This document shows positions 4,994-59,000 of a stretch of DNA of 64,000 nucleotides, in pieces. Source of the stretch: a virus. Its lineage: Duplodnaviria > Caudoviricetes. The DNA lies in the IMG/VR virus record IMGVR_UViG_3300028920_000023, one strand, 5' to 3'. Below the pieces are notes generated by a model that saw only the letters and a program-made list of their open reading frames with translations, did not search any database and was not told the origin of the DNA. Both the position numbers and the translations under genes were made by a program. The first letter of the stretch is position 1. Each line of letters starts with the position of its first letter.

Positions 4994-5001
4994 CAAAGAT
5001 A
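4994..5001 (+). promoter_or_regulatory. candidate late promoter CAAAGATA
   Basis: TCAAAGATACCATAA (4993-5007) is 14/15 identical to the minus-strand motif at 20664-20678; 24 nt before the sigma ATG. Confidence 0.6.
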
Positions 5002-5025
5002 CCATAAGACAAGGAGACAATACTG

Positions 5026-7299
5026 ATGGAACTGAGTGAAAAACTAGATCGCGTGTTTGGTCTAAAGCAAGTATTCGTTGAAGAAAATCAAGTATTAGAC
5101 GCCAACAAATGGCAAGCAGCAGACCCAGACCACCTAAACAAATTAGCTTTCTCTAAAAGCACAGGAGCACGAATGAACGCGCTCCTGAGAATCTTACGCG
5201 ATCTAGGCGAATACGACCTATTAAACACAATCAAAAAATATGACTCAGAAAATCCAAATTCAAGAAATCTAGCTTATGAGCTATACAAGCAAGCACGCAA
5301 AGAAGCACGCAAAGAAGCCAACAAAAGAGCTGCCATAGACCCCACCAGACGCGGCAAAGTCTTACGCAGAAGAGAAGCAGAAGCGCCAGCAGCTGGTATA
5401 GAGAAATCCCCAGAATCCAAACTGGTGGACCTGGCCCAAGCACGAGAAAAACCAGACAGAGAAAGACCAGACGATTATCGTTGGGCAATCATGGATGTAG
5501 ACACCGGAGAATATGCCAAAGACGACCAAGGCCACGCCATAACCGCAGAAACAGAAGACGACGCCCAAGCCCTAATCGACGGCGAAGTCGATATGTTCCC
5601 AGACCCGGACCAGTACACACCTAAAAGAATTGAAAACCCCAAATCACTAAAAGCACTAAGTAAAATCGTTAAACCACTACAGAATGGTTGGACTATGGAC
5701 GAAGTAGTCAAAGCGCTCATGCCTTATATCAGAAGTTTATCATGGAAATTCAGAAATGAAAAAGCAGACTTCGACGACCTAACTCAGACAGGCGCATTAG
5801 CCGTACACAACGCTATAGAAACAGACAAAGGCATAGCGCCATTCGCATGGCACGCCTATCCGCATGTCAAAGGGGCAATCATGAACACCGCCCTACGTGG
5901 TGGCGTAGTGTCCGGAGGAGAAAGAACATTCCGGCAAAAAGGACCAATCTCCGGATATACCATACTCTGGCGAGAACCAGAAGACAACCCAGACGAAGAA
6001 CCTAGATCAATTCACTTCGGCAGTAAAGAAATGACCGGAGCTCAATATGGGGGAACAGCTAGAGCAGAAGCGGGAAAAGGCGGAAGATCCGACCCCGGTC
6101 TAGAAAAAGCAAAACAGATGCAAGACCGACTCCGCGAAAGAGGTATCATCTCAGCCATCCGACCAGAACGACAAAGACTGGCGTCAATGGCATCCAAACT
6201 AAAAGGATCAGAAGGACAAACCGAACTTGGCGATACAGTCAAAGCAACCAAAGTAGCATCCCCAGAATTCATAACCCAACAGCAAGAATTATTCAATATG
6301 CTTATGGATAAAGCAGAATTGAATGATAAAGAAAAAGAAGTAATGAGAATGGCCTATGGACTCGATGTACCAGAAGCAGGACTTAGAGGCCCCTCCTACA
6401 GCGGAAGAGACCAAGGCGTCTTCGGTCCACCCGAATCAGGTGAAAAAGAAAGAAAACCGGGAGAACAATGGGGCATACCCTCGCCAACTGCCCAAGGCAA
6501 GCTCCTCAGACGCCATGCAGGCGAACTCGAAGGAGAACCCGAAGCAAGAGGGCCAGTAGAAATATCCGATATCCTGGGAATGCCGCGTAGCACCGTAAAA
6601 CGAAATTTCCAATCCGGTAGTAAGAAGCTGTACAAAGCAAGAGACGAACTATACAAACAATACCCGCATCTGCGACCCTTCATGAACAAAGCCTTTGGGA
6701 AGAAAAAAGCAGAAGAACCAGTAGGGAAGCCAACAAAGAAAGCCGCAAGGAAACCAAAGCCCGCAACAGTACCGGCTGCAGCGCCAGGGCAATACGACCA
6801 AGAAACGCTAGACTGGGCTCAAAAACACGGCTTCCCGCCAGAACAAGCCGCAATAATGATGCAAGCATTACGTAGCGCAGGAAAATTAGATGATAGCTTA
6901 GACAGAATCTTCGATGGGGAACTAGATCAACTGGACGAGCGATTTGGGCGAAAAGAAGTACCAAACATCAAAGCAACAAACTATTATTGCGCACGATGTG
7001 GGGAAACTACAAGACACTCCCTCAGAGGAGATAAATCGACCTGCGAAAAATGTGGAGCCATAAAAAGCAAAGTAACAGAAAGCCAAGCAGTATACGAAGC
7101 CAACATCATGTACCGTACATTCCTTAAAGCAACAAGGAAAATACGTAAAGCAGCCATAGAAGAAATAGACGAAAGATCAAAGCACATCCTAGAAGGAATA
7201 GACGAGCAAGAAATCAAAAACCTCTTAGAAATAGAAGACATCTGCAGACAACACCTGATAAAAGCAATCGTCTCCGGAGATTACAACGACATCGTCTAA
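5026..7299 (+). CDS. very large sigma70-family factor with N-terminal, internal and C-terminal extensions and a Zn ribbon
   Basis: Region 2 (ALMPYIRSLSWKF..DFDDLTQTGALAVHNAIE..FAWHAY..VKGAI); region 4 (LNDKEKEVMRMAYGL ... EISDILGMPRSTVKRNFQSGSKKL); CARC..CEKC. Confidence 0.75.
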   Translation: MELSEKLDRVFGLKQVFVEENQVLDANKWQAADPDHLNKLAFSKSTGARMNALLRILRDLGEYDLLNTIKKYDSENPNSRNLAYELYKQARKEARKEANKRAAIDPTRRGKVLRRREAEAPAAGIEKSPESKLVDLAQAREKPDRERPDDYRWAIMDVDTGEYAKDDQGHAITAETEDDAQALIDGEVDMFPDPDQYTPKRIENPKSLKALSKIVKPLQNGWTMDEVVKALMPYIRSLSWKFRNEKADFDDLTQTGALAVHNAIETDKGIAPFAWHAYPHVKGAIMNTALRGGVVSGGERTFRQKGPISGYTILWREPEDNPDEEPRSIHFGSKEMTGAQYGGTARAEAGKGGRSDPGLEKAKQMQDRLRERGIISAIRPERQRLASMASKLKGSEGQTELGDTVKATKVASPEFITQQQELFNMLMDKAELNDKEKEVMRMAYGLDVPEAGLRGPSYSGRDQGVFGPPESGEKERKPGEQWGIPSPTAQGKLLRRHAGELEGEPEARGPVEISDILGMPRSTVKRNFQSGSKKLYKARDELYKQYPHLRPFMNKAFGKKKAEEPVGKPTKKAARKPKPATVPAAAPGQYDQETLDWAQKHGFPPEQAAIMMQALRSAGKLDDSLDRIFDGELDQLDERFGRKEVPNIKATNYYCARCGETTRHSLRGDKSTCEKCGAIKSKVTESQAVYEANIMYRTFLKATRKIRKAAIEEIDERSKHILEGIDEQEIKNLLEIEDICRQHLIKAIVSGDYNDIV

Positions 7300-7613
7300 G
7301 TTTCCTCGGAGGAAACCTCATCATCAAACTCGACAGAACGACGCTGCAACTCTAAAATATCAGGCTCTTTTTCGGCCAGTCTCTCATTACCAAGAGACTG
7401 GCCTTTCTCTATCCACTCGTCTTTCTCAAGTATGGACTCCACACGGTTCTCGTCTAGAAATATCCACTCCACTTCACTAAATGTTCCACAGACCCTCTCG
7501 TGGACATTCTTGAAGAAACCCTGGAATGATGGTATCTGCCGGCCTTTGTTATCGCGAACCACAACGATCCCAGAGTGATAAAGAACGACCTTTACGACGT
7601 TTCGATATGACAT
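7296..7613 (-). CDS. hypothetical protein
   Basis: ATG at 7613 (MSYRNVVKVVLYHSG) with GAGGAG SD. Confidence 0.6.
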   Translation of the reverse strand: MSYRNVVKVVLYHSGIVVVRDNKGRQIPSFQGFFKNVHERVCGTFSEVEWIFLDENRVESILEKDEWIEKGQSLGNERLAEKEPDILELQRRSVEFDDEVSSEET

Positions 7614-8805
7614 TATGAACACACTCCTCAGATATCGGCCTAAACGAATCATCCGAATGGTAAATACCCTCACCGAGATCTAGAGCAATATCGCTGACAT
7701 CCATATCCTCAACCTCGGACCCAGCAGCATCCTCAATCTCTTCATCATCTGGAAATTCATCATCAACGTCAATATCTGTATCTTCTATCTCATCCTCAGG
7801 CTGAGTACCGTAGTCCTGAGCAGGTTCCTCGATAGGTTCTTGTTGTTTATACCTATTCGAATTACCATCGAGCATATAATCTGCCATTTTCTGGATGAAA
7901 CTAGCTGCATCTTCGCCTTCTGGCACATCTAGACGACCTTTGTCCAAAATCTTGTCATCCCTCCACAACTGCGCCATATAACGCCCCGGAACCATATTGA
8001 CCGGACGAAATCTCAACTTAAAACCATCTGACCTCTCGAAACCAATATCCTTCTTGTTCGGCAATTCCAAAGACGACCAAGAAGGAATCTCCGGACCAGT
8101 CTCTTCATCACCCAGACCACCCAGATCATCCTCCAGACCACCCAGATCATCCTCCAAATCACCTAGATCATCATCCAATTCATCATCCAATTCATCATCC
8201 ATACCTAATTCCTCATCATCGGCCTCTGTAGGGTCCTGCGAAGGAGGAGGATCACCAGCACTAGGCAGATCCTCTCCCTTGCCCCAACGATCCGGAGAAG
8301 AATAAGGATCAGAAGAAGACGGAAGGCCCTCTATAGCCTCCCTAATACCCAAGAAATCCCTCTGTAATACACCAGAAATCTCTCTGAGGCGCTCCCCAAT
8401 CTCAAGGAAATCATGGCGTTTCTCACCATCAGGATAATATCCAGCAAGCTCCATCCACTTATCAACAATACCATCCAACTGATTCTTAGCATTCTCAAGG
8501 GTATAACCACTACCTCCTGGGGTAGAACCACCATAATTCTCAGCTTCTTTGGACTGATCAGGATCTTTGATGCTTACGTCGATTTCCTCTTCTTCTCTTA
8601 TAATACCATCACTTAATCTGACCTTATCTCTTTGTAGGTTGGTATTGACCTGCTGTACGGCAACAGGCTGGTCAGGCAATGGTTCCATTCTCTGTAACCT
8701 AGAACTGGCCTTAGACATCCTGGTGTCCGAAGACAACCTCGGGTCTAAATCTTCAAGATTATCTATTTCAAGTCGCTTATCGAGTATTTTCTCTAGATTT
8801 TCCAT
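7549..8805 (-). CDS. acidic low-complexity protein, possibly head-associated
   Basis: 418 aa, D/E-rich, DDELDDELDDDLGDLEDDLGGLEDDLGG repeats; GGGAG SD. Confidence 0.75.
   Translation of the reverse strand: MENLEKILDKRLEIDNLEDLDPRLSSDTRMSKASSRLQRMEPLPDQPVAVQQVNTNLQRDKVRLSDGIIREEEEIDVSIKDPDQSKEAENYGGSTPGGSGYTLENAKNQLDGIVDKWMELAGYYPDGEKRHDFLEIGERLREISGVLQRDFLGIREAIEGLPSSSDPYSSPDRWGKGEDLPSAGDPPPSQDPTEADDEELGMDDELDDELDDDLGDLEDDLGGLEDDLGGLGDEETGPEIPSWSSLELPNKKDIGFERSDGFKLRFRPVNMVPGRYMAQLWRDDKILDKGRLDVPEGEDAASFIQKMADYMLDGNSNRYKQQEPIEEPAQDYGTQPEDEIEDTDIDVDDEFPDDEEIEDAAGSEVEDMDVSDIALDLGEGIYHSDDSFRPISEECVHNVISKRRKGRSLSLWDRCGSR
8112..8200. repeat. 21-bp and 12-bp tandem repeats encoding an acidic linker
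   Basis: CCAGACCACCCAGATCATCCT x2 plus a variant, then TCCAATTCATCA x2. Confidence 0.8.
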
Positions 8806-8809
8806 TTAC

Positions 8810-8841
8810 ACGCTCCCGTTTCTTTATCTTTTCAGGAGCAC
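8810..8841 (-). promoter_or_regulatory. RBS-sequestering hairpin with AAAAGATA in the loop
   Basis: GUGCUCCUG/CGGGAGCGU 9-bp stem (3 G-U) covering the SD; 14-nt loop. Confidence 0.65.
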
Positions 8842-8844
8842 CAC

Positions 8845-9108
8845 CTAGAGATCCAGAATACGAATATCATATTGCCCAAACCTACGAGGTTCAACCTTTG
8901 GCGTCTTCTCCTCGGTCCTAACATCCCCCTGCCCCAACCTACGCATCTCATCTAGAGCATCAGACTTAGAATAAAGCCTACCAAAGCCAGACCATCTACG
9001 CCCATCCCAATATTCCACAAAAATTGACGAACCTATCTTACGAGTTATACAAAAATGGCCCTCGACACCATCAGCGCGATCCGTAAGGAACATATCAGTC
9101 ACTTCCAT
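8845..9108 (-). CDS. hypothetical protein
   Basis: 87-aa ORF coupled to thyX. Confidence 0.6.
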   Translation of the reverse strand: MEVTDMFLTDRADGVEGHFCITRKIGSSIFVEYWDGRRWSGFGRLYSKSDALDEMRRLGQGDVRTEEKTPKVEPRRFGQYDIRILDL

Positions 9109-9989
9109 GGGGCTCTCATACCTAATGCTTCAAGCTTCTCCTCAATCTCAACACGTTCTCTATTCTTGCGTGGTTTATGATCTGGATCAATAAGCTTAGC
9201 TCCGATAGCTATAGAATATACCCCATCAATATCTCCGACAGCAAGACTATTAATAATCCTGGATTCCAGGGAGGATAATGTTATACTATTTAAAGAATAA
9301 TCTTCGAAAGCTTCCCAAGCCAACGGACACCATTTCTGGACAATCTTACCAATAACATTAGCATAGGCCCTGATTTCACATTGTGCATGGCTATCCATGC
9401 GCAACCTAAGAAAATGCAACAAATTATGCAGATCAATTTTCCAATACGCCTCAGTATAAGTCGAGAGGGGCAAATCCTTCCTAGCCTGCTCACGTGCTAC
9501 ACCCTGCTCAATCCTATACTTATAAACAGACCCAGCCTCCTCCAACAACTTCTTCTCCTGCTCAGACAAAATAGTGCCAACCCGAGCATCAAGATAATCG
9601 CCACTCCCCTGCTTATTGTCCTTGTTCTGGAAACGCCACTGACAGACTTCCGTAGCATAGGCAGAACCAATGGCGAACGAATACCTCGTAGAATATTCGT
9701 TAACAGAAGCAGTCCGATGCCGAATCCACTGTCTCCAACAATCCATAGGCACACGAACATGCAATTTGATCTCGCACATCTCAAAGGGCGTAGTATGCCT
9801 ATGCCTCATCAAATATCGAATCAAACCACGATCTTCACTAATCTTCTTGGTTCCACTGCCGTAAGAAACACGAGCAGCCTGAACAATAGAAGCATCATTG
9901 CCCATATAATCCACAACGCGAACGAAACCATTATCAAGAACATCAAAGTTATGATCAATAATCTCTTCCAAACCCTCAGAAATAATCAC
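9099..9989 (-). CDS. thyX: FAD-dependent thymidylate synthase
   Basis: VLDNGFVRVVDYMG, AARVSYG, LMRHRHTTPFEM, RQWIRHRTASVNEYSTRY, EQARKDLP, HAQCEIR. Confidence 0.97.
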   Translation of the reverse strand: MIISEGLEEIIDHNFDVLDNGFVRVVDYMGNDASIVQAARVSYGSGTKKISEDRGLIRYLMRHRHTTPFEMCEIKLHVRVPMDCWRQWIRHRTASVNEYSTRYSFAIGSAYATEVCQWRFQNKDNKQGSGDYLDARVGTILSEQEKKLLEEAGSVYKYRIEQGVAREQARKDLPLSTYTEAYWKIDLHNLLHFLRLRMDSHAQCEIRAYANVIGKIVQKWCPLAWEAFEDYSLNSITLSSLESRIINSLAVGDIDGVYSIAIGAKLIDPDHKPRKNRERVEIEEKLEALGMRAPWK

Positions 9990-10642: not shown

Positions 10643-10655
10643 TAGAATCCTCCAA

Positions 10656-12319: not shown

Positions 12320-13323
12320 CTGTCATCCCCCGCAGTCTCGTACCAAGAAATCGTATCCCTAAGACCCTGTTCAAGAGAAACCTCACTAGACCAACCCGCA
12401 ACCTCACGAAAATTCGAAGAATCGACATTCCGCCTAGGCTGACCATCGGGTTTAAGATTATTATAGACAAAATCACCCTCATAACCAATAAGATTAGCTA
12501 TGAGATCAACCAAATCCCTAATTTTAATCTCCTCACCAGAACCAATACAAAATGGACCTATATCCGGTAAGCCTATTGACTTGATTATAGCATTGGCACA
12601 ATCATCAACATATAGAAATTCTCTGGTGGCCTCACCAGTGCCCCAAATCTCGACTGAATCTTTGTTCAAGGCTTTGGCTTCGAAACATTTTCGAATTAGA
12701 GCTGGTATAACGTGGCTAGTATTGAGGTCGAAATTATCTCTAGGACCATATAGATTAGTGGGGATCAGATATACGGATCTGAATGAGTATTGTTGTTGAT
12801 ACGCCATGAGCATAGTCAGAAGTGCTTTTTTGGCGATACCGTAGGGTGCATTGGTTTCTTCTGGAAAGCCATTCCAGAGGTCCTCAATTTGGAATGGGCA
12901 TTTTGTGAATTTTGGAAAACTGCACACTGTGCCTATCTGTATAAATTTCTCTACACCTGCTTTCATACTCTCATGAATAAGATTCAGACCCATAGCCATA
13001 TTATTATAGAAAAAATCACCAGGCATATCCCTATTCGCTCCAATACCACCAACATTCGCAGCTAAATGAATAACCACATCTGGTCTATGGATTCTCAATA
13101 ATTGTCTAATATCTTCTACAATAGTCAGATCATAAGGACCAACATATTGCGTCCTATCTGGTGAATAATTACCATGAGTTCTAGATGGTACTATGATTGC
13201 TTCTACGGGGTAGGTTCCAATTAGTGAGGTCAGACGGGATCCCAAAAAGCCAGTTCCGCCTGTGATTAGAATTCTTGCTCCTGATAAGTGCGATATTAGG
13301 ATTCTTGCTTGCGGTATGCTCAT
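12316..13323 (-). CDS. fcl: GDP-L-fucose synthase
   Basis: ILITGGTGFLG, HLAANVGGIGAN, PEETNAPYGIAKK, PTNLYGPRDNF, SHVIPALIRK, GTGEATREFLYVDD, PDGQPRR; ATG at 13323 with GGAGAG SD. Confidence 0.95.
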   Translation of the reverse strand: MSIPQARILISHLSGARILITGGTGFLGSRLTSLIGTYPVEAIIVPSRTHGNYSPDRTQYVGPYDLTIVEDIRQLLRIHRPDVVIHLAANVGGIGANRDMPGDFFYNNMAMGLNLIHESMKAGVEKFIQIGTVCSFPKFTKCPFQIEDLWNGFPEETNAPYGIAKKALLTMLMAYQQQYSFRSVYLIPTNLYGPRDNFDLNTSHVIPALIRKCFEAKALNKDSVEIWGTGEATREFLYVDDCANAIIKSIGLPDIGPFCIGSGEEIKIRDLVDLIANLIGYEGDFVYNNLKPDGQPRRNVDSSNFREVAGWSSEVSLEQGLRDTISWYETAGDDR

Positions 13324-13367
13324 TATTGGCTCTCCAAGGTTCATACCTATATATCATGAGCCAATAA
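13323..13367 (-). promoter_or_regulatory. hairpin covering the fcl SD and the A of ATG
   Basis: Perfect 10-bp inverted repeat TTATTGGCTC (13323-32)/GAGCCAATAA (13358-67); GATATATA in the loop. Confidence 0.7.
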
Positions 13368-13376
13368 CATCAGGAA

Positions 13377-13721: not shown

Positions 13722-13730
13722 AATTCCTCC

Positions 13731-14306
13731 CTAGATATTTTTGCTGTTAATATTAATTCCTTTACGTCTTCTATACATCACGATTTCCCTCATCTTATCC
13801 GGCACTTTCTCCATCTCCTCCTTGTATCGCTGATGAAAATACTCTATATAAGCGAAATGTCCAACTATAATATAATCACAACCCACCTTGTCCCTACAAA
13901 AACGAAGAGCATCCCTACGCAATACCTTATAATCCTTATTATACAAAACCATCCTATGTGGAAACGTCAACCTATTAGGATTATAAGTCTTAAACATTAC
14001 AAAATCAGGCAAAGGCCTAAACAACTTCTTAGTAGCATTACTAGATATCTGCTTATGGACCCTCTTTACATCCTGAAGCACATGTGGAAAAACCAATTTC
14101 AAGAACTCTACAAGATCATCCCTAAGCCCCTTCTTAAAAAGTGCTTTCTCAATCTGAATCATCTTATCACGGTTTTTACTACAGGTCTCATTCTTAGCAA
14201 GATGATTCATCAAATCCCTATGAAGATCCTTCTCACGTTTCAACAGCCAATCATGAAAGGCTTTCTCATGGGATAATGCACAAAATTGACTAGTTCTTAT
14301 GTTCAT
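13731..14306 (-). CDS. hypothetical protein
   Basis: 191 aa, translationally coupled to the upstream gene. Confidence 0.6.
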   Translation of the reverse strand: MNIRTSQFCALSHEKAFHDWLLKREKDLHRDLMNHLAKNETCSKNRDKMIQIEKALFKKGLRDDLVEFLKLVFPHVLQDVKRVHKQISSNATKKLFRPLPDFVMFKTYNPNRLTFPHRMVLYNKDYKVLRRDALRFCRDKVGCDYIIVGHFAYIEYFHQRYKEEMEKVPDKMREIVMYRRRKGININSKNI

Positions 14307-20663: not shown

Positions 20664-20678
20664 TTATGGTATTTTTGA
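20664..20678 (-). promoter_or_regulatory. candidate late promoter TCAAAAATACCATAA
   Basis: Near-identical to 4993-5007; core motif 20 nt upstream of the 20649 ATG. Confidence 0.6.
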
Positions 20679-20698: not shown

Positions 20699-20726
20699 TT
20701 TACGTAAAATATCTACGCGATACAAT
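20699..20726 (+). promoter_or_regulatory. candidate sigma70-like early promoter
   Basis: TTTACG-N16-TACAAT with GCGA immediately before the -10. Confidence 0.5.
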
Positions 20727-25088: not shown

Positions 25089-26813
25089 TTAACTTACCCA
25101 GGTATCGCCCGTGTATCGCTTGAATACAACGCCGTCAAACCAAGTATCGCCAAAAACAGGATCCCTGCCTAAAAGACAACGCAACCTAGGCAGAATATCA
25201 TCCTCATAATCCAAAGAATCATCACTAGCATCAACACACAAACGCACAGCCCTATGGACCAACCCGCCTACATTGCCAATAGGATCAATAGCAGAATGAT
25301 CCGTATAACCCAAAGTACGGAAATCAACCTCATCGCCCAAACCCTGATCACCCTCAGTAACAAACCTATTGCTAACTGAAGGAGGAACAGGCGTAGAACG
25401 ACTGGAGGTAGTCCCAGCCAAAGCCTCAAACTGACCCTTCGTAGGCTGATATCGAGGATTGCGACTAAGAGCAAAGCTGCTAATAACAGAACTGACCTTA
25501 ACAAACGGAGCCGAAGCAGGAACATCCGTAATAGACAAGAAAGAATCAAAGAAATCAGCAATCTCGTCCGAAGTACCACCCCACAGACTACTCAGAACAA
25601 CATGACCATTACCGAATCCCTGCTGAAAATTCTCCTGATCTGATTCCTCATTTTTCTGCAGATCATCAATCGGAACTATATTAACAACCTGCCCAGCAGT
25701 CATACTTCTATTCAATAACAAACTAGCAAACTCAACAACATCCGGGGTCTCCCCATCCATCTTAATACTATGTGTAGAAAAAATAAACTTGATATTATTA
25801 GCTAGATCATCCTGACGCTCAATAGAACTCACCCACACCGGAGAATTTTCTCTGGAAGTATCCCCAGACTCCTCATCTGGAGACGGAGCTACAATATCAA
25901 ACTCTCTGAAGATACCAGAAGGAATCTCAACATTATTAGTAGAAGTTCTCGTAGCACCAACTCTAAACGGATAATTCGAAGATTGAATCCAGCTCTCAAA
26001 ATTCGAATCCTGGTCAGGAACAGCATTACTAGCACTATTAGTCAACAAACCAGTACCATGACTTCCTGTACTACCCTGATAATCACTGCTGGACGTAGAA
26101 GATGCAATCTCGTAAACGGCAGGACTATCGAACTCACCATCAGAATCGCTATCCGTAGCATCTGCTGGTGGCGCTAATGCCTCCAAGAATGTTCTGTATT
26201 CTGGTAAACTAGTATCTAGAGTGCGGAAAGTTAAATACCCATCTATGGTATTTGCTTCGGCTGGGTCTACAACTACAGTTTCTTCGGTGCTGGTAATAAC
26301 CTGTATTCTTTTATATTGATATGTGAATGTATTGTCTATTTGGTAATCTACGTAGAATAATGCGACTTCGATTGCTGAACCTTGTTGGTTGGCTGTGAAT
26401 ATGAGTCTTAGTTTGCCAGTTATTTCGTCGCTATCTGATCCGCCTGTGTTGGTCCCACTTATTCTTTTTATTTTGGCTAGCCGGATTTTCTCCCATTTTC
26501 CTGGCATAGAGACATGCATGTCCCATACCCAGCTTCCTGGGAGGCTGTAGGTGTTTGTTCCGGTTTCTACTTTGGCTGTTATTAGGAATGGGAATAGGTT
26601 CTGGTGACTTAGTCTGAGCTGTAGGTTGTCTAGGGCTTTGGCGATGATGAGCTGCCGCACGGTTATGTCGGCTGATGGACGGTTCAGGACGTCTGCTTGA
26701 ACAGGGTCGCTAGGGATAAACCATCTGATATTCAGAGAGTCTTCTTCAGTCAAAGTTGTGAAAAGGTTTCCTGGCGATACAGTCGGTATCAAAGCCGGGT
26801 TAATCGTAGGCAT
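25089..26813 (-). CDS. probable virion structural protein
   Basis: 574 aa, beta-rich and acidic; preceded by CATAAATA inside an SD hairpin. Confidence 0.7.
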   Translation of the reverse strand: MPTINPALIPTVSPGNLFTTLTEEDSLNIRWFIPSDPVQADVLNRPSADITVRQLIIAKALDNLQLRLSHQNLFPFLITAKVETGTNTYSLPGSWVWDMHVSMPGKWEKIRLAKIKRISGTNTGGSDSDEITGKLRLIFTANQQGSAIEVALFYVDYQIDNTFTYQYKRIQVITSTEETVVVDPAEANTIDGYLTFRTLDTSLPEYRTFLEALAPPADATDSDSDGEFDSPAVYEIASSTSSSDYQGSTGSHGTGLLTNSASNAVPDQDSNFESWIQSSNYPFRVGATRTSTNNVEIPSGIFREFDIVAPSPDEESGDTSRENSPVWVSSIERQDDLANNIKFIFSTHSIKMDGETPDVVEFASLLLNRSMTAGQVVNIVPIDDLQKNEESDQENFQQGFGNGHVVLSSLWGGTSDEIADFFDSFLSITDVPASAPFVKVSSVISSFALSRNPRYQPTKGQFEALAGTTSSRSTPVPPSVSNRFVTEGDQGLGDEVDFRTLGYTDHSAIDPIGNVGGLVHRAVRLCVDASDDSLDYEDDILPRLRCLLGRDPVFGDTWFDGVVFKRYTGDTWVS

Positions 26814-26822: not shown

Positions 26823-26860
26823 CCTAATTTATCTCTATTTATGTTTGGTTATAAATTAGG
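26823..26860 (-). promoter_or_regulatory. RBS hairpin with CATAAATA/CAAACATA in the loop
   Basis: Perfect 10-bp CCTAATTTAT/ATAAATTAGG, extendable to 12 bp over AGGGG with G-U; 18-nt loop. Confidence 0.7.
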
Positions 26861-27623: not shown

Positions 27624-27663
27624 ACGACCTCCGAATACAGAAACAGGACGGTTTAACCGTCCT

Positions 27664-27691
27664 GTTGTATCACATTGTGAATTGTTTGGAA
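27664..27691 (-). promoter_or_regulatory. candidate early promoter
   Basis: TTCCAA-N16-TACAAC with TCACAATGTGA directly upstream of the -10. Confidence 0.35.
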
Positions 27692-27692: not shown

Positions 27693-28694
27693 TTAGAGAG
27701 ACTCAGATATCAGCCTGGAGATCTCATCCTCATCTGGCATAACCTGACGAGAAGAAGGAACAAAATTACGATAAGCCTTACCCGTACCAAACATCTCATA
27801 AAAAGCTTCCTTCTCCTCCAGAAACCTCTTATGGGACTTCACTGCGTTTCCAACCGATTCCTTCATATAAGGGTCAAACGAACTAGAATGTTTACGTCTG
27901 TTCATACCCTTTAGAGCCTGTAAAGTGGCTTCGTAAGAATTTTCCAGTATTTGGGTAGCAATATATAATTCCTTGATATGTGCAATACTAAGACCGTTAG
28001 TATCCTTAACCCACCTTTCTATCATTGTGCCATCTGCCTCAGGCAATTTCGATCTAATATAGATCCTTCGGGACTCTGCACAGGGCATACCGATTTCGAT
28101 AACTCGATCGAACCTACTCGGCCTAGACATAATATTGGATCTTATTTTCTCAGGATAATTCGTAGTTGCCAAGAAAACAACTTTATTAAGATCGAACATC
28201 CCATCTAGCATATTCAATATCTCAGATTCACAACTTCTTGCTAAAATGGAATCAACATCCTCCATAAGATAAATCAGAGGCATATTCGGATGTATCTTAC
28301 GTATTAAGGTATAACTTTCCTTAACAAGATGTACACCTGGCCAATCTAATACTACACCACTACGATTTTTGATAAGATCCTCAACAGCGAGTCTAATACA
28401 GCAAGACTTGCCACTTCCAGGAGGACCCATCATCATAATCCCGCGTCTATAGGGGACCTCGGCTCTTTTGAACCTATCTTCTAAAGCCCAAAAACTCTTG
28501 ATTTCATTGAGTACCTTATCTGAGGCAGTATCCGGAAAACGATACAAAGCTTCCGTCTTGATTTTCTTATCAACAAAATATGTTCCCTGCATATTTCTCT
28601 CAACATCATAATAACCAGGAGGAAGTTGTTTGACCACCTGGCCAGCAGGAAGAAACACACCATCATCCACTTCCGTCCACTGGATATACTTCAT
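27693..28694 (-). CDS. classical-clade AAA+ ATPase (BCS1/FtsH-like module, no protease domain)
   Basis: YRRGIMMMGPPGSGKS, YLMEDVD, LNMLDG, FLATTNYPE, RPSRFDR. Confidence 0.88.
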   Translation of the reverse strand: MKYIQWTEVDDGVFLPAGQVVKQLPPGYYDVERNMQGTYFVDKKIKTEALYRFPDTASDKVLNEIKSFWALEDRFKRAEVPYRRGIMMMGPPGSGKSCCIRLAVEDLIKNRSGVVLDWPGVHLVKESYTLIRKIHPNMPLIYLMEDVDSILARSCESEILNMLDGMFDLNKVVFLATTNYPEKIRSNIMSRPSRFDRVIEIGMPCAESRRIYIRSKLPEADGTMIERWVKDTNGLSIAHIKELYIATQILENSYEATLQALKGMNRRKHSSSFDPYMKESVGNAVKSHKRFLEEKEAFYEMFGTGKAYRNFVPSSRQVMPDEDEISRLISESL

Positions 28695-28700: not shown

Positions 28701-28736
28701 TCTCCTTTGTGGTATCTTTGTCTATGTGCAGGGAGA
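28701..28736 (-). promoter_or_regulatory. CAAAGATA motif (28713-20) between anti-SD TCTCC and SD GGAGA
   Basis: 5-bp stem with a 26-nt loop (weak). Confidence 0.45.
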
Positions 28737-34012: not shown

Positions 34013-34048
34013 TCCCCTTACTTCTTATTTTTGGTTAGTTTTTGGGGA
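34013..34048 (-). promoter_or_regulatory. CAAAAATA (34026-33) inside an anti-SD/SD stem
   Basis: UCCCC/GGGGA 5-bp stem, 26-nt loop. Confidence 0.5.
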
Positions 34049-39204: not shown

Positions 39205-51287
<12,083 letters not shown>

Positions 51288-51301
<14 letters not shown>

Positions 51302-52292
51302 TCTCTCTTACATCAGCATTCAACAAAATACGTTCCCTCTCAGCGAGCCTAAGATCCCCATTAATCATCTCAGTAACAAGATCATTAAAAGAAAACTCCG
51401 GAACCCACCCAAGAACCCGTTTAATCTTAGAAGCATCACCACGCAACTCAGGAACCTCAGTAGGTCTCAAATATCGCTCATCAAATCTCACATAATCCCG
51501 CCAATCATAAATACCAACCCTCTCAAAAGCAGCAGTAAGAAAATCCCTAACAGAATAACAAGTACCAGTAGCAACAACATAATCATCAGGAACATCATGC
51601 TGTAACATCAAATGCATCGCACGAACATAATCACCAGCATGGCCCCAGTCTCTCTTAGCATCTAAATTACCCAAAGTAATATGATCCTGTAAACCATACT
51701 TAATCCTAGTAACAGCACGCGTAATCTTACGCGTTACAAAAGTCTCACCGCGCCTTTGCGACTCATGATTAAACAAAATACCATTGCAAGCAAACATTCC
51801 ATACGCTTCACGATAATTGACCACCTGATTAAAAGCACAGGCCTTAGCACAAGCATAAGGACTCCTAGGCCTAAACGGAGTATCCTCATTCTGAGGAACA
51901 GGCATATCCCCATACATCTCACTAGAACTAGCTTGATAAATCTTAGACTTAAGACCCAACCGCCTAACCGCTTCCAAAATATTCAAAGTACCAACAGCAA
52001 TAGTCTCATGACAATACACAGGCTGATCGAAAGAAATCCTCACATGTGATAAAGCACCCAGATTATAAATCTCATCTGGTCTACAAGAATTAATAATACT
52101 AATTATACTACTAGAGTCTGTTAGATCACCATAATGCAGCTGTAATTTATCAAGAATATGATCAATACGGTCAGTGTTAAAAGAGGAACTTCTCCTCTTT
52201 AGGCCATGAACTTCATAACCCTTCTCAAGCAGATATTCACTCAAATAAGAACCATCTTGACCAGTAATTCCAGTAATAAGAGCAATCTTCAT
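51288..52292 (-). CDS. gmd: GDP-mannose 4,6-dehydratase
   Basis: [82 protein letters not shown]. Confidence 0.97.
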
Positions 52293-52297
52293 AGTAT

Positions 52298-52330
52298 TCT
52301 CCAAGAGTTTATAATACTTACTCTTGGAGA
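52298..52330 (-). promoter_or_regulatory. perfect 11-bp hairpin covering the gmd SD
   Basis: TCTCCAAGAGT/ACTCTTGGAGA; minus-strand loop AAGTATTATAA. Confidence 0.75.
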
Positions 52331-52339
52331 TGACTGACC

Positions 52340-52651
52340 TTAAGGGTTGGCAACAGTTACAGCGACCCTTAAGTTAGGGCCAGCTCTCTTTAAGCGATCC
52401 GCAATAAGCTCTGCTCTCTCCAGATGACATTCCGCAACCACGGTTATGTCGTCCATTACCTCTCGTGCCACATCCAGAGCGAAGTCGGGTTTAAAACCAA
52501 TATCGGTTAGTGCTTTAAAGACATATTCTGGATCTTTATACTTACCTAGGATAACGTATGCTATCTTGACTTTCACGTTCTTATACTTCTCATCGTGCTT
52601 TCTGATGATCTTCTCCACTTCGTCTATTTTCTGTATCTTTTTGCGTCTCAT
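52340..52651 (-). CDS. ClpS-like adaptor-fold protein lacking the NDD pocket
   Basis: [32 protein letters not shown]; GGAGG SD. Confidence 0.5.
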
Positions 52652-52663
52652 GATGTCGTTCCT

Positions 52664-52704
52664 CCTTTTTCTGTTATATCGCATAGATAAATAACAGAAA
52701 ATGG
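52664..52704. promoter_or_regulatory. divergent control region: 11-bp inverted repeat containing GATAAATA (+) and TTTCTG-N16-TATAAC (-)
   Basis: TTTTCTGTTAT (52667-77)/ATAACAGAAAA (52691-701). Confidence 0.6.
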
Positions 52705-52712
52705 GAATAATA

Positions 52713-53753: not shown

Positions 53754-54165
53754 AGAATTATACAAAAAACTGTCCAGCAATGACCCAATAATCAAATCAA
53801 AAGCTGTAGAAGAATTCAAAAACCTCAGCATAAGAGAAAGGAACATATTCATCGCAGAAGTAGACGGAGGACTAACCAAAATATCCGAGCTAATCGCTGA
53901 ACGAAAACCACCAGACACAAGCAACATACAATTGAAAAAACAGAGAATCGTCAAAAGACGCCAACCACCACCCCCACCAACAGTAGAAAAGACCATAGAG
54001 AGAGGCACTTTCTATAAGTTCCTAAAGAGCAAACAATGGGAACCTACAATAAATAATTGCTCTAAACATCCCAAAGATCTCGCCTTAGTCATAGAACAAA
54101 AAACACAATTCTGCTTAGGATGCGCAGTAGAAGCCAACAAACTCTGGAAAGAAATGAACCAATAA
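53740..54165 (+). CDS. hypothetical basic/Pro-rich protein with a C-terminal Cys cluster
   Basis: RQPPPPPT; CSKH..FCLGC; coupled in the operon. Confidence 0.6.
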   Translation: MINTEELYKKLSSNDPIIKSKAVEEFKNLSIRERNIFIAEVDGGLTKISELIAERKPPDTSNIQLKKQRIVKRRQPPPPPTVEKTIERGTFYKFLKSKQWEPTINNCSKHPKDLALVIEQKTQFCLGCAVEANKLWKEMNQ

Positions 54166-55256
54166 TGCACATCGGAATATTCTCAAAATTAGGCGCAGCT
54201 GGAGGATCGGAACACAGATGCGCAGAAATGGCCAACTCGATAGTACGATACACAGGACATACCGTAACCCTATTATGCGAAAAAGAATTAAACGAAAGAA
54301 TAAAGAACCTGCTAGACAACAAAGTCAACATAGCACTCCACGTCCTAGGAGAATACGGACACAACCGAAACCTCCTACACGAAGTAGACTCCCTACTAAT
54401 AGTAAACAGCGACAGCTACTCATTCAGTAAACCAGAATACTGGCATGGCAAAGCCATGAACAAAGACAAACCACACCACACCTTCGACATAGACCCAGCC
54501 AAAATCCGACAGATGGTCTTCCTATACAACTTCGTAGTAAGCCCAGCACAAAATCTCAAAAAATTATACCAAGAATGTCCAGATGTAAGAATCATATGCG
54601 CCAACAAACGTTTCTTCGATGAAATAAGCACCAAAGACAAATTCAAAGGAATGAGACACCTACCAAGAACAACACTAGACTCTCCCATATGCCCACAAAG
54701 CGTATCGACAGCCAAATACCCATCGGAACAAATCAGAATAGGCAAACATTCCCTAGCACATGGATATAAATTCAACAAAGAACACCAAAAATTAATCGAG
54801 AGGATAAACGAAAAGTATAGTCATAAGGTCATCTGGGACTTCATGGGAGTGCCAAAAGACCGCATTAAAGAATTATCCAGAATACCAAACGTCATAATTC
54901 GTGAAGCATTCTCAAAATCTGTAAAAGAATACCTAATGGGTATAGATATCTTTCTCTTTTTCATAGATTGGGGAAGAACAGAACCATGGTCTAGGGCAGT
55001 AGCAGAGGCCATGATGAGCGGCACACCAGTAATAGCCACAGACAAAGCCGGCAATAGAGACCAAGTCATCAGCGGGAATAACGGGTTCCTATGCAACACC
55101 GTAGACCAAATGTTCGACAGTATAAGCTTTTTAATAGAAAACCCAGAAATACGCAAAACCATGGGTCTAAACAACCACATCTATTCCCAGAGATTCACAA
55201 GCCAAAAAATAATCAACAACTACCTAGACTTCATAACCACCAAAAAACATACATAA
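54165..55256 (+). CDS. GT4 (group 1) glycosyltransferase
   Basis: GAAGGSEHRC; IDIFLF..EPWSRAVAEAMMSGTPVIATDKAGNRDQV..NGFLC. Confidence 0.85.
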   Translation: MHIGIFSKLGAAGGSEHRCAEMANSIVRYTGHTVTLLCEKELNERIKNLLDNKVNIALHVLGEYGHNRNLLHEVDSLLIVNSDSYSFSKPEYWHGKAMNKDKPHHTFDIDPAKIRQMVFLYNFVVSPAQNLKKLYQECPDVRIICANKRFFDEISTKDKFKGMRHLPRTTLDSPICPQSVSTAKYPSEQIRIGKHSLAHGYKFNKEHQKLIERINEKYSHKVIWDFMGVPKDRIKELSRIPNVIIREAFSKSVKEYLMGIDIFLFFIDWGRTEPWSRAVAEAMMSGTPVIATDKAGNRDQVISGNNGFLCNTVDQMFDSISFLIENPEIRKTMGLNNHIYSQRFTSQKIINNYLDFITTKKHT

Positions 55257-56011
55257 TCACCGCATGCGGAGAAAAACACACCGCACGAATCAACCCATGT
55301 ATACAAGCACTCAAAAAATACACCACAGCCGATATCATAATAATCACCTCAAGATCAACCCAACATATCAACCACGACCAAATAATTCGACATACAATCC
55401 CGGACAAATATGACGATGCACAAGCCAGTAGAATCCTAAAAACCGGAATACAGAAAATCATATCACTAACAGAAACATACTGCTATATGGATACAGACAT
55501 ATTCGCAGTAGACCAGGAAGCAGACGAAATATTCACACACAGAAAAGGAATCATAAACTTCGCCAAAGACCCAGGAAAAACAGTCAAAAAATTCTCCAAA
55601 TATGCCACCAAAATACCCCTAACACAAGCAATAAAAGAAAAATTCAACCTAGATATACCAGAAAAATGGCAAATATGGAACGGAGGACTATTCCTATTTG
55701 ACAAACACTCAATACCATTCCTCAATACCTGGCACCAATTCACCCTAGACACATTCCAAGACCCCATCTGGAAAACAAGAGACCAAGGAGCACTAATAGC
55801 AGCAGTATGGAAACACGGACTACAAAACAACGACACAATACCCAGAGAATACAACTGGCTACATAAACTACAAAGCGGACTAAAAAACCTACCAAACGGA
55901 TTCAGAACCAAAAAAGGCCAAAAAATCAAATTCCTACACTTCCCAGTATCCTATGGAGACACCAAATCAGAAACCTGGAATAATCTACAAAAAATACTTA
56001 ATCAAGCCTAA
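55091..56011 (+). CDS. GT8-like glycosyltransferase; the domain begins at ~55247 without a nearby start codon
   Basis: CYMDTDIF (DxD), WNGGLFLF, DQGAL, YNW, FLHF. Confidence 0.7.
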   Translation: MQHRRPNVRQYKLFNRKPRNTQNHGSKQPHLFPEIHKPKNNQQLPRLHNHQKTYIITACGEKHTARINPCIQALKKYTTADIIIITSRSTQHINHDQIIRHTIPDKYDDAQASRILKTGIQKIISLTETYCYMDTDIFAVDQEADEIFTHRKGIINFAKDPGKTVKKFSKYATKIPLTQAIKEKFNLDIPEKWQIWNGGLFLFDKHSIPFLNTWHQFTLDTFQDPIWKTRDQGALIAAVWKHGLQNNDTIPREYNWLHKLQSGLKNLPNGFRTKKGQKIKFLHFPVSYGDTKSETWNNLQKILNQA

Positions 56012-56879
56012 TATTTCATGCCATGTACATATATTCATGATCACATTATACCACAATCTTAAAAATGACGGATGGCATGTCAGATTATTCAGCGAGATAC
56101 TCGGCTTAGTTGAAACATCCAAAGAAATAATTACGCCTACTCTCAAGATCGGCGAAGACATAATAAAGATCAAGAGATTTGTAATTTTTCAGAAAGACGA
56201 AGAATATTATATAATAGAATTCCAAGATCAAGTCAATCCAAAGAAATTATCAGTTAGACACTTCATAAAAAATGAAGCTATCAAGATCGTGCTCAAATGC
56301 ATGTATCGAGATAACTTATATCAATGGGACAAAATCAGACCATTCTTGTACTTTGAAAAAGACCCACATATTTGGCAGAAGCACCTAGGATACCTCAGAT
56401 CAGGCCCAAGGAATGTACCAAAATTATACTTCCGTGGTACCTCGGGATTTGGAAATAGGAAAAACGTCCTCAAAAAATTAAGAATACTAAACCCAAGCCA
56501 AAAGAAAATAGGACTAAACCAATACATAGAAGAATGTAGACAACATATTATGGCCTTATCCCTGCCAGGAGTAGCCAATACCTGTCATAGAGAAATAGAA
56601 ATGTTCGGGGCCGGAATCCCGGTCCTAATGCCCAGACAAAAAACCGCATTCTACGACCCACTAATACCAAATTACCATTACATCTCAGTAGATGTTGACG
56701 CCAAACAGGACGCTACTGACACAATCGTATCTAAAATAACCAAAAGATTTTTGGAAACATATAAAAACGAGGCCTTGCTGCACGACATCAGAAAAAACGC
56801 TCTGGAATGGTACGATAGGAATATACTAGTTGGGAACAGAAGCAAAATAACTTTACGATTACTGGGTTTAAATGGATAA
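55953..56879 (+). CDS. GT-B (exostosin/GT47- or GT90-like) glycosyltransferase, start uncertain
   Basis: LYFRGT..NRK; YIEE..ALSLPGVANTCHREIEMFGAGIPVL. Confidence 0.65.
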   Translation: METPNQKPGIIYKKYLIKPNISCHVHIFMITLYHNLKNDGWHVRLFSEILGLVETSKEIITPTLKIGEDIIKIKRFVIFQKDEEYYIIEFQDQVNPKKLSVRHFIKNEAIKIVLKCMYRDNLYQWDKIRPFLYFEKDPHIWQKHLGYLRSGPRNVPKLYFRGTSGFGNRKNVLKKLRILNPSQKKIGLNQYIEECRQHIMALSLPGVANTCHREIEMFGAGIPVLMPRQKTAFYDPLIPNYHYISVDVDAKQDATDTIVSKITKRFLETYKNEALLHDIRKNALEWYDRNILVGNRSKITLRLLGLNG

Positions 56880-58245
56880 ATTCAGAAGAAAACTCCAAAT
56901 ATTACAACATAAAAAACAGGGGGCACCACTTCCGCCAACCAAAAAAGAATATATACCACCAGTACAACAGCAGCTGAGCATTTCCTTATGCTGCACATGT
57001 AAGGGAAGAAAAGAACAACTAGGATATACGGTACCTAGCAATCTTGAGATCATCAAAGATGACCAAGATATAGAATATATCCTGTTAGATTATGATAGCC
57101 CAGATAACCTCAAAGAGTTCGCCCAGAGATATCCACAACTGAAATATTATAGAATAAATGATAGACCATACTTCCACCATAGCGAAGCCAAAAATTTTGC
57201 ACATGCGCAGGCATCAAATGCAATTGTAATTAATATAGATTCCGAGACATATTTCACTAAAAAATTCATTGATAAAGTAAGAACAGAATTCACTAAGAAT
57301 ATAAACATTATATTACATTGCGACCGCCATGGGGTTATCGCGTTAAGCAGAGAAAACTTCCAGAAACTAAATGGATATGATACAAGATTCATAGGATGGG
57401 GCTCAGAGGATAATGATTTAGTCAACAGAGCCAGGAATCTAGGATTAAGACATAAAAAATTAAGAGGAAAAGAATATACCAGCTACCATGATCACAAAGA
57501 CAAAGTAAGAAACAGATTCACCATAATACCAAAACACCTTTCCTATCCGGCAAACAAAGAAATCCTTAAACAAAACGAAAGAAATAAAATAACAAGAGTA
57601 GAAAATAAACCAATATTCAGAAACAATAACCCAATGAGGTTCGTAATCGTTGTAGGCCTACCAAGATCCGGAACCAGCTGCGTAGCAGGGACCATCGAAA
57701 AACTTGGTATAGCTTTCAGCCCAAGCATGTATGGACCCAAACAAAACAACCAAAAAGGATTCTACGAGTGCGTAGTTCTGGCCAATGTTTGCCATAGGTG
57801 CGTAGCACAACCAAGTTTGGAATATAGAGTAAGTATCGAAAGCCGCAAAAAGAACTTGTTAGAATTGTATAAGTATTATAGATTCGGTATCGATAATAAC
57901 AGGACAGTGGGTATGAAGCATCCTCTTCTTACGATGATGCTCCCGGAAGCTGAGTATATCTTCGGGAATATCATATGGGTTAATGTGATAAGGCCGCTGG
58001 ATAAGATCAAACAGTCAGCTATCAGCGTGGGTTATTTTGGGAGCAAATCAGAGACTATAGCTATGCTGGATAATATGAATGCGGAACGGAATCACCAGAT
58101 GGATAAGAGGGAACATTTGGATGTATATTATGAGAGGTTGTTGCGGAGGCCAGAAGAGGAAATAGAGCGTATTGCTAATTATCTTGGAACAAATATGAAT
58201 ATGAGAGCGTTAGAATTTGTGGATGATAAATTAAGGCATTTCTAA
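56872..58245 (+). CDS. GT2/GT7C glycosyltransferase fused to a sulfotransferase domain
   Basis: NIDSE..LNGYDTRFIGWGSEDNDL; VVGLPRSGTS..KGFYE..MKHP..YYERLL..ERIANYLG. Confidence 0.85.
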   Translation: MDKFRRKLQILQHKKQGAPLPPTKKEYIPPVQQQLSISLCCTCKGRKEQLGYTVPSNLEIIKDDQDIEYILLDYDSPDNLKEFAQRYPQLKYYRINDRPYFHHSEAKNFAHAQASNAIVINIDSETYFTKKFIDKVRTEFTKNINIILHCDRHGVIALSRENFQKLNGYDTRFIGWGSEDNDLVNRARNLGLRHKKLRGKEYTSYHDHKDKVRNRFTIIPKHLSYPANKEILKQNERNKITRVENKPIFRNNNPMRFVIVVGLPRSGTSCVAGTIEKLGIAFSPSMYGPKQNNQKGFYECVVLANVCHRCVAQPSLEYRVSIESRKKNLLELYKYYRFGIDNNRTVGMKHPLLTMMLPEAEYIFGNIIWVNVIRPLDKIKQSAISVGYFGSKSETIAMLDNMNAERNHQMDKREHLDVYYERLLRRPEEEIERIANYLGTNMNMRALEFVDDKLRHF

Positions 58246-58964
58246 TGATTAGCTTCTGCACCACTTGTATGAACAGAACATGTCATTTGGCTAGGACTTT
58301 ACCGATCAATTTGGTAAACACAAGAGATTGTGATGTGGAGTTTGTTGTTTTAAATTATGGCAGCAGGGATGATTTGGATCATTTTATGGGGATGTTTTAT
58401 CATTTAATAATGACTTCTAGAGTCAGGTATTTCAAGACACAACAGGATGTCTTCCGGATGAGTCATGCTAAGAATGTTGTGCACAAGTTGGGCGATGGAG
58501 ATATTTTGTGCAATTTGGATGCGGATTGTATTATTGATGAGAATTTCGTTAAGGAGGTCAAGGAACGTGTGCTGGGCTCTGTGGTTAGGGGATGGTATGG
58601 TGGTCTTATTGCGATAGAGAAGAAGAATTTTATGGAATTGAGGGGATATGATGAGAGATTTAGGGGATGGGGTCGAGAGGATGATGATTTTGTTAACAGA
58701 GCTGGGCGTCTGGGGTTAGAGTTCGTGAGGTTAAATAGGGATGTTTATAAACAGATTAAGCATAAGCCTGATGATTCTAACCTGGATATGAAGGCTGAGG
58801 AATCTATTCCTCTAAACAGTGAATTGATGCATAATAATACTAAGCTAGGTATTATTACGGTCAATCAAGTTTCTTTTGGGGAGTGTATGATTGAATCTGG
58901 TAAAGTTGAGTTGACGAAGCCAAACAGTATGGTAAGGAGAGCTGTATCTAGATTCTCTAAATAA
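58245..58964 (+). CDS. GT2/GT7C glycosyltransferase
   Basis: ISFCTTCMNR, CNLDAD, LRGYDERFRGWGREDDDF. Confidence 0.85.
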   Translation: MISFCTTCMNRTCHLARTLPINLVNTRDCDVEFVVLNYGSRDDLDHFMGMFYHLIMTSRVRYFKTQQDVFRMSHAKNVVHKLGDGDILCNLDADCIIDENFVKEVKERVLGSVVRGWYGGLIAIEKKNFMELRGYDERFRGWGREDDDFVNRAGRLGLEFVRLNRDVYKQIKHKPDDSNLDMKAEESIPLNSELMHNNTKLGIITVNQVSFGECMIESGKVELTKPNSMVRRAVSRFSK

Positions 58965-58971
58965 AGTCTGA

Positions 58972-59000
58972 CCTCCCAAACATAATATGGACAAGGGAGG
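58972..59000 (+). promoter_or_regulatory. anti-SD/SD hairpin with CAAACATA
   Basis: CCTCCC/GGGAGG 6-bp stem; motif at 58977-58984, 21 nt before the ATG. Confidence 0.65.

Follow-up and report, generated by a model that had tools for sequence, protein, structure and literature searches.

The 64-kb stretch of DNA analysed here (hereafter, the window) belongs to the huge-phage record IMGVR_UViG_3300028920_000023, and in it a short motif, CAAANATA, precedes the start codons of a set of genes, while hairpins cover the ribosome sites of several of them. The motif is genuine, specific to one strand and close to gene starts; four of the hairpins are clearly non-random (13323, 26813, 52292 and 52667-52701) and three are modest (8805, 50295 and 59006). 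Our findings suggest that the motif may be a promoter element of an uncultivated phage clade, and that the hairpins may act as translational gates of the type known from phage T4. The phage is of marine-sediment origin, and the window is part of a genome of ~355 kb. A megablast search against phage genomes returned no close relative among deposited phages, and a scan of viral contigs was also without a match. All statistics cover the 64-kb window and ~0.72 Mb of related loci.

A first-pass annotation of the sequence had proposed the pattern nA(A/T)AnATA at 14-28 nt before eleven named ATGs, and the pattern is found there at 11 of 11 sites. This loose consensus nevertheless lacks specificity: the window contains fewer copies of AWANATA than expected (75 vs 111), and the pattern marks 11 genes where shuffled upstream regions lead one to expect 2.35 and yield up to 9. 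Specificity resides in the core CAAANATA, which occurs 11 times in 128 kb (both strands), with eight copies located 8-32 nt before a curated start on the coding strand. These mark 8 genes, where dinucleotide shuffles predict 0.24 and reach 2 at most in 1000 trials; no gene is marked by the opposite strand. The commonest form is CAAA[A/G]ATA[C/A]. Despite CAAARATA not being enriched in the window as a whole (7 copies vs 8.2), six of the seven precede a start, and the signal is therefore positional. Additionally, an unsupervised expectation-maximisation search of 46 upstream regions returned CAAAGATAC as the best motif apart from the Shine-Dalgarno (SD) sequence. Two of the originally listed sites, AAAAGATA before 8805 and GATATATA before 13323, fall outside the strict core and within chance expectation, and are not individually supported. 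The genes that carry the motif extend beyond structural and sugar functions to include the sigma-like factor and an AAA ATPase.

The motif is also kept in related phages. Orthologues of the 574-aa protein encoded from 26813 are abundant in metagenomes (422 matches, 74 loci), and CAAANNTA stands before the orthologue in 28 of 62 distinct loci, compared with 2.4 in shuffled sequence and 2 on the opposite strand, at a distance of 15-52 nt (mostly 15-42) from the start. A variant (CAAAATTA, CAAAACTA, CAAAAATA, CAAACTTA or CAAACCTA) precedes the gene in 8/8 further relatives at 56-61% identity. Similarly, many orthologues of the 839-aa protein have CAAACATA or CAAAAATA upstream. A strand-specific, start-proximal octamer that persists down to ~50% identity between proteins is most plausibly a clade promoter, and we infer a -10-type element without a -35 partner, specific to this huge-phage clade and probably read by the host RNA polymerase together with a phage-encoded sigma-like factor. 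A scan with the sigma70 consensus gave counts near or only moderately above those of shuffles, and its sites do not pick out gene starts. Read on the other strand, CAAANNTA gives TAnnTTTG, the Bacteroidetes-type -7 box; this candidate was rejected on account of its wrong orientation and the strong SD sequences on the genes.

The hairpins were examined without reference to annotation in a scan for Watson-Crick stems that run for 9 or more bp without a mismatch and enclose 3-30 nt, which found 16 in the window against 4.95 +/- 1.3 in block shuffles. Eight of the 16 are intergenic, though only 8% of the window is intergenic. The intergenic stems with short loops are terminators (n = 3; 7374, 27642 and 35682), another, at 1102, is an operator-like palindrome, and the four with large loops of 11-25 nt all lie on an SD sequence or AUG (13323, 26813, gmd at 52292, and 52667-52701), where about 0.2 large-loop stems near starts would be expected by chance (Poisson p 7e-5). 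Wherever a hairpin is present, its 3' arm covers the SD or AUG. None of these hairpins is terminator-like and none has a short loop or a T-tract; the same test did flag 7374-7403 and 27642-27666. None matches an Rfam family, and the hammerhead-type core CTGATGA is absent from the hairpin sites. The seven strong stems of the first-pass annotation all exist: four are clear in folds compared with 200 dinucleotide shuffles (z -2.70 to -3.60) and three are modest (z -1.39 to -1.61). Its two weak stems, at 28694 and 34007, fold no better than shuffles, although the ribosome site of 34007 ranks sixth of 46 in opening energy (9.7 kcal/mol). Two divergent starts, 5026 and 20649, carry the motif without a hairpin, as had been said, but a third, 52701/52713, had been left out and is divergent yet hairpin-bearing. 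The folds further confirm that the motif lies in the loop or the 5' arm at every hairpin except that of gmd, whose loop lacks CAAANATA.

A 60-nt minimum-free-energy scan across the whole window finds many equally structured windows inside genes, and raw folding energy alone thus does not single out these sites. Averaging the pairing probability over the SD zone discriminates poorly, since shuffles already reach 0.3-0.55, and two tests were used in its place. In the first, the best duplex between -60..-19 and -18..+5 was compared with shuffles of the upstream part; it gave p<0.05 at 7/46 starts (binomial 0.0075). Fisher's method applied to the seven co-oriented spacers that measure 39 nt or more gives a combined p of 3e-5; the one that fails is the spacer of 27623, in which the terminator at 27642-27666 leaves the SD of the gene untouched. 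In the second, opening energy was calculated as the cost of freeing -14..+3 within the -80..+40 RNA. The highest values among the 46 starts belong to 52701, 50295, 59006, 8805, 13323, 34007 and 26813 (9.5-16.4 kcal/mol; the remaining starts average 5.8). All seven had been listed in the first-pass annotation (p 6e-6), and five are in the objectively defined CAWANATA set (p 1.6e-3).

Individual sites illustrate these results. The 3' arm covers the SD of the 8805 gene (418 aa, no assigned function; duplex p 0.03, opening energy 10.8 kcal/mol), of fcl, where it also adjoins the ATG (duplex p 0.012), of the 574-aa gene (duplex p 0.004) and of gmd. At 50295, the start of the collagen-like gene, it adjoins the ATG; here z is -1.39, or -3.5 when only the upstream part is shuffled, and the opening energy is 12.5 kcal/mol. 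The 59006 gene, a pyruvyl transferase (Pfam PF04230), has an opening energy of 11.1 kcal/mol. Just before the gmd hairpin, at 52339-52373, another perfect stem (9 bp, 17-nt loop) overlaps the 3' end of the 52651 open reading frame (ORF), resulting in two tandem hairpins ahead of gmd.

The geometry of these sites bears on which RNA could be affected. A start ~7 nt past the motif falls beyond the 5' arm at every hairpin site; for predicted RNAs begun 7 nt after the motif the opening energy is 0.2-6.9 kcal/mol, and loss of the 5' arm lowers the computed value by 5-16 kcal/mol compared with 1.8 +/- 2.5 in controls. An RNA begun at the motif cannot contain the 5' arm, so the hairpin would act only on longer RNA, and since the 3' arm always holds the SD or AUG, its simplest function would be to block translation of read-through RNA. 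We consider it about an even chance that the hairpins work as a T4-style gate, with read-through RNA locked and promoter-initiated RNA open. The motif promoter would drive a set of genes that includes virion parts, namely the 1761-aa baseplate-like protein, the collagen-like fibre, and the 574- and 839-aa proteins. If a gene of this set lies 39-60 nt behind a co-oriented neighbour, the spacer would be built as a hairpin whose 5' arm is situated over the motif or upstream of it and whose 3' arm pairs with the SD or AUG. RNA arriving from upstream, for example from CGATAYAA promoters, would then have a closed ribosome site, while RNA initiated a few nt past the motif would lack the 5' arm and be open. 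For instance, a promoter at CGATATAA (52674-52681, minus strand) would transcribe the 52651 ORF and after it gmd (locked), the gene for adenosine deaminase and the collagen gene (also locked), and CAAAAATA at 50324-50331 would yield an open collagen mRNA.

At six of the hairpin sites the upstream gene is co-oriented and nothing terminator-like intervenes; sigma70-like promoters of the CGATAYAA type are found upstream. This second sequence occurs 13 times in the window against 3.5 expected and precedes the starts at 1239, 20745, 52651 and 63392; it reads as a sigma70-like -10 element with a TTnnnn -35, as in the copy within 20699-20726 (TTTACG, a 16-nt spacer, TACAAT). The class is plausibly an earlier, host-type one and a probable source of read-through RNA. 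CGATAYAA also points toward a CRISPR-like array region.

In related phages the hairpins are less constant than the motif. Within the well-supported subclade of the window, the 574-aa gene has one in 5 of 10 members (WIN, L001, L006, L007 and L008), with arms of unrelated sequence and a constant plan, the motif in the loop and the SD in the 3' arm. Covariation, which the first-pass annotation had proposed as a check, is present as a single compensatory change, U-A to C-G, between L007 and L008. RNAalifold found no consensus structure for five upstream regions, as the arms cannot be aligned by sequence. The hairpin of the 574-aa gene is thus sporadic in its occurrence. Among 435 SD-led starts in the related loci, 12 reach the lowest p that the shuffles allow, against 2.2 expected (3e-6). 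The strongest of these have z down to -7.5, and several carry CAAANNTA-like or TATATAAA-like sequence in the loop. Starts that bear the motif are locked in 8 of 65 cases (~12%) and others in 21 of 370, about a twofold difference. The hairpin is thus an occasional add-on rather than a property of the promoter class, and of the broad regulon first claimed, the promoter class stands as broad while the gated portion is narrower.

Several observations weigh against the gate. The motif-hairpin association in relatives is only marginal (Fisher 0.051); the 574-aa gene has a hairpin at p<0.05 in only 5/63 upstream regions of the clade, and among closer relatives it is significant in 0/7 testable cases, with looser pairings in 2/8. 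In the window itself, a hairpin accompanies only 4-7 of the 11 motif sites and is lacking at 4-5 of them, three of the seven stems called strong have z of only about -1.4 to -1.6, and gmd has the strongest hairpin and no motif. In spacers of 40-60 nt a hairpin is necessarily near the SD and a motif 14-28 nt upstream necessarily inside it, so the position of the motif in the loop is partly geometric. The gene upstream of fcl (13721) carries the motif itself, which means that read-through RNA into fcl would not be earlier RNA, and the divergent start 52701 has no obvious source of read-through. From sequence we infer that the motif is active as a promoter, where transcription starts, that these starts are late, that read-through RNA is made and that translation is affected. 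Taken together, the first-pass observation is confirmed. Its interpretation is partly supported: carrying a mechanism known from T4 over to a new phage clade with another promoter consensus is reasonable, though unproven.

Some of the same observations would suit hairpins that are translational-coupling or dosage devices instead of temporal gates, in which an upstream ribosome melts the 5' arm and the motif promoter adds independent expression. The 5' arms in the window begin only 4-11 nt past the upstream stop at 8805, 13323, 26813, 50295, 52292 and 59006, within reach of a terminating ribosome; gmd, 10642 and 36372 show complementarity to the ribosome site without a motif; and fcl lies downstream of a gene with the same motif. 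In relatives, however, the strongest hairpins mostly begin 14-34 nt past the stop, beyond the ~12-nt reach of a terminating ribosome, and large loops of 11-25 nt with a conserved motif are not needed for coupling. We regard coupling as unlikely to be the explanation.

Inverted repeats might also be DNA operators at which dimeric regulators flank the promoter, chiefly at 52667-52701, where a perfect 11-bp palindrome brackets two abutting, opposed promoter-like motifs (CGATATAA at 52674-52681 on the minus strand and CATAGATA at 52682-52689 on the plus strand) and neither of the divergent genes has an obvious read-through source. A similar, operator-like repeat, a perfect 9-bp palindrome GATAATTAT-N7-ATAATTATC, is located at 1102-1126, in the promoter region of a gene for a 977-aa PKD/Ig-domain protein (start 1239). 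For 52667-52701 taken alone, an operator fits at least as well as an RNA lock. As an account of the hairpins in general it is distinctly improbable: the arm sequences differ at every site and so offer no shared operator, the 3' arm at co-oriented sites is always the SD itself, pointing to RNA, and the arms in relatives are unrelated yet still pair.

The motif, being A/T-rich and 3-15 nt upstream of the SD, has the composition and place expected of a translational enhancer or S1-binding element, and in that case it would not be a promoter. This is very unlikely, given that it is conserved at particular positions (C1, A2, T7, A8), in a strand-specific way and down to ~50% protein identity, that in our own comparison it shares 6/8 positions with the T4 late promoter TATAAATA, and that the locked RNA would enclose it in a loop at 26813 and 59006. 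Least probable, though by a narrow margin, are 3'-end or processing elements of the upstream mRNA (a stabiliser, weak terminator, RNase III site or protection of GGAG from a RegB-like nuclease) that overlap the ribosome site through short spacers: each of the hairpins is found where a co-oriented gene ends, within a spacer of 39-60 nt, and secondary structure in T4 does protect GGAG from RegB (PMC3014915), but they lack the short loop, T-tract and terminator call of the real terminators at 7374 and 27642, the latter of which avoids the SD, and the complementarity test specific to -18..+5 is significant.

Beyond the gate itself, a phage-sigma-dependent CAAANNTA promoter and the hairpins could together form a general regulatory grammar in a large, uncultivated clade of huge phages with T4-type heads, one that would co-phase virion genes with glycosylation genes (fcl, GT9, pyruvyl transferase, and the collagen-like fibre that their products may decorate) and make glycan synthesis part of morphogenesis. 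We offer this only tentatively and hold it to be doubtful. The proposal, first made in the annotation, that sugar genes belong to the morphogenesis programme depends on two or three sites, mainly 59006 and 52701, as gmd has no motif and that of fcl is degenerate.

Table 1. Coordinates and properties of the motifs, hairpins and genes of the window.
Feature	Position	Strand	Gene or context	Remarks
Motif CAAAGATA	4994..5001	+	24 nt before ATG 5026 (757-aa sigma70-like)	No hairpin; fold z -0.29
8-bp stem (two G-U pairs), 14-nt loop with AAAAGATA (8825-8832)	8811..8840	-	Start 8805	z -1.39
Perfect 10-bp stem, 25-nt loop with degenerate GATATATA (13348-13355)	13323..13367	-	fcl	z -2.70, 3/200 shuffles
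Motif CAAAAATA	13736..13743	-	14 nt before ATG 13721 (114 aa)	No hairpin; z +1.58
Motif CAAAAATA	20670..20677	-	20 nt before ATG 20649 (839 aa), divergent start	No hairpin; z -1.30
Perfect 10-bp stem (12 pairs in fold), 18-nt loop with CAAACATAAATA (26836-26847)	26823..26860	-	Start 26813 (574 aa)	z -2.78, 2/200 shuffles
Motif CAAAGATA	28713..28720	-	18 nt before ATG 28694 (AAA ATPase)	Claimed stem at chance; z -0.11
Motif CAAAAATA	34026..34033	-	18 nt before ATG 34007	5-bp anti-SD stem; z +0.13
Motif CAAAAATA (50324-50331) over 5' arm of 7-bp stem (50321-50327/50296-50302), with inner stem	50296..50331	-	Start 50295 (collagen-like)	
Perfect 11-bp stem, 11-nt loop with TATTATAA	52298..52330	-	gmd	z -3.60, 0/200 shuffles; duplex p 0.004
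Perfect 11-bp palindrome, 13-nt loop	52667..52701	.	Between divergent starts 52651(-) and 52701(+); GT9 gene	z -3.60
6-bp CCTCCC/GGGAGG anti-SD stem, 17-nt loop with CAAACATA (58977-58984)	58972..59000	+	Start 59006	z -1.61, 11/200 shuffles
CGATAYAA copies	1023-1030, 1220-1227, 20718-20725 (+), 52674-52681, 63416-63423			8 more copies intragenic
Intrinsic terminator, 11-bp GC-rich stem, 3-nt loop, T-rich tail	27642..27666	-		Contrast case
Sigma70-like protein, 757 aa	Start 5026			Pfam Sigma70_r2, E 1.7e-4 (weak match)
thyX, fucosylation cassette, fcl-like epimerase/reductase	fcl start 13323			Pfam PF01370 for the fcl-like gene
Large proteins without assigned function, 1276 aa and 839 aa	839-aa start 20649			839-aa protein conserved in clade
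Clamp loader, T4-like			In the window	
AAA ATPase	Start 28694			
Protein with Tail_P2_I and PA14 domains, 1761 aa, baseplate-like	Start 34007			
Adenosine deaminase, gmd, row of glycosyltransferases, pyruvyl transferase	gmd ATG 52292		In the window	gmd: Pfam GDP_Man_Dehyd, E 3e-133

Two of the genes in Table 1 merit further description. The collagen-like protein (39205-50295, start 50295) has 3696 aa, of which 2430 residues fall in 27 G-X-Y runs; it consists of 28% Gly, 25% Thr and 16% Pro, and its DNA has 60% GC compared with ~41% for the genome. The 574-aa protein has no sequence match in Pfam, PHROG or PDB, and its AlphaFold model (pLDDT, a per-residue confidence score, 73.5; pTM, a predicted fold score, 0.41) gave no meaningful match when searched with Foldseek against PDB and BFVD. 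A role as major capsid protein is ruled out by the relative L078, which has a separate Gp23 gene. In L078, genes for a T4-type Gp23 and a prohead protease (Peptidase_S77) stand beside the 574-aa orthologue, which indicates that the clade is distantly T4-like in its head module.

Other observations concern the surroundings of the 574-aa orthologue. In a large subclade (L010, L011, L013, L014, L020, L022, L023, L026, L028, L035 and others), the gene seemingly opens with ATT (ATT CCT ACT ATA...) after a strong GGAGG SD, and no in-frame ATG, GTG or TTG is found at the aligned first residue; ATT may therefore be a non-canonical start codon of this conserved gene. A complete type I-E-like cas operon (Cas3, Cse1, Cse2, Cas7, Cas5 and Cas6e, by Pfam) is located at L076:12983-19742, a few genes from the orthologue, with a strong hairpin that sequesters the ribosome site directly before cas3. 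Genes with a Mom domain (PF25680) adjoin the orthologue at L076:8433-10013, L077:8621-9952, L082:1370-2896 and L081:1848-3425. In the window, the coding sequence upstream of the starts 10642 (a 218-aa protein) and 36372 (thymidylate kinase) is complementary to the ribosome site (p 0.036 and 0.024), which may reflect chance or a coupling hairpin. The plus strand of the window is A- and C-rich (AT skew to +0.45, GC skew to -0.32) nearly independently of gene orientation, and the skew flips only in a few 2-kb blocks at ~26-28, 32-34, 48-50 and 58-62 kb.

If these interpretations are correct, the motif would supply a usable promoter consensus for uncultivated huge phages, with which one could annotate transcription units and separate genes under phage control from those with host-type promoters. 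They would also imply that the hiding of ribosome sites known from T4 is used well beyond the classical T-even phages and serves other classes of genes, including a giant collagen-like fibre and sugar-pathway genes.

The hairpins can be compared with several known systems. An N4-type hairpin promoter, recognised in DNA, has a stem of 5-7 bp and a 3-nt loop, and is ruled out by stems here of 6-12 bp with loops of 11-25 nt. An intrinsic terminator has a GC-rich stem, a loop of 3-8 nt and a T-tract; this identity is likewise ruled out, as the loops here are of 11-25 nt and the hairpins were not flagged as terminator-like. Translational-coupling hairpins resemble those of the window in having a stem that sequesters the SD and a 5' arm just past the upstream stop, but differ in that the loops described here carry a conserved promoter-like motif and the arms in relatives lie mostly out of the reach of a ribosome.

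The putative promoter resembles the T4 late promoters, which depend on gp55, gp33 and gp45, in being an A/T-rich element of 8 bp without a -35 partner, situated 14-28 nt before the starts of virion genes and having 6/8 positions in common with TATAAATA; the clade also has T4-type head genes (in L078) and a T4-like clamp loader. It differs at positions 1 and 3, which are C and A here and T and T in T4. The T4 sequence TATAAATA has a single copy in the window, which does not precede a gene, and TAWANATA has nine copies, none upstream of a start; the consensus here is CAAANATA. No gp55 homologue was found in the window, where the only sigma-like protein is the 757-aa protein with sigma70 region 2, which is not of gp55 size.

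The closest parallel is offered by the hairpin gates of T4. For genes e and I-TevI, a hairpin has been shown to block translation of read-through RNA, and soc and 49 are listed with them (PMC3014915; PMC2988022), so that the precedent of e, soc, 49 and I-TevI had been correctly cited in the first-pass annotation. Related gates precede I-TevII, I-TevIII, segB and Aeh1 mobE, and transcripts from the internal promoters lack the 5' arm (PMC3014915; PMC2988022). As in T4, the window appears, from sequence alone, to combine a -10-only promoter by the ribosome site, in or beside the 5' arm, with a hairpin that would hide the SD or AUG in longer RNA. The loops here are larger (11-25 nt), and the consensus is CAAANATA where that of T4 is TATAAATA. 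The genes affected are large virion and glycan genes, unlike the lysozyme or homing endonucleases of T4. The proposed gating mechanism is the known T4 one, and what would be new is the phage clade, the promoter consensus and the classes of genes to which it appears to be applied.

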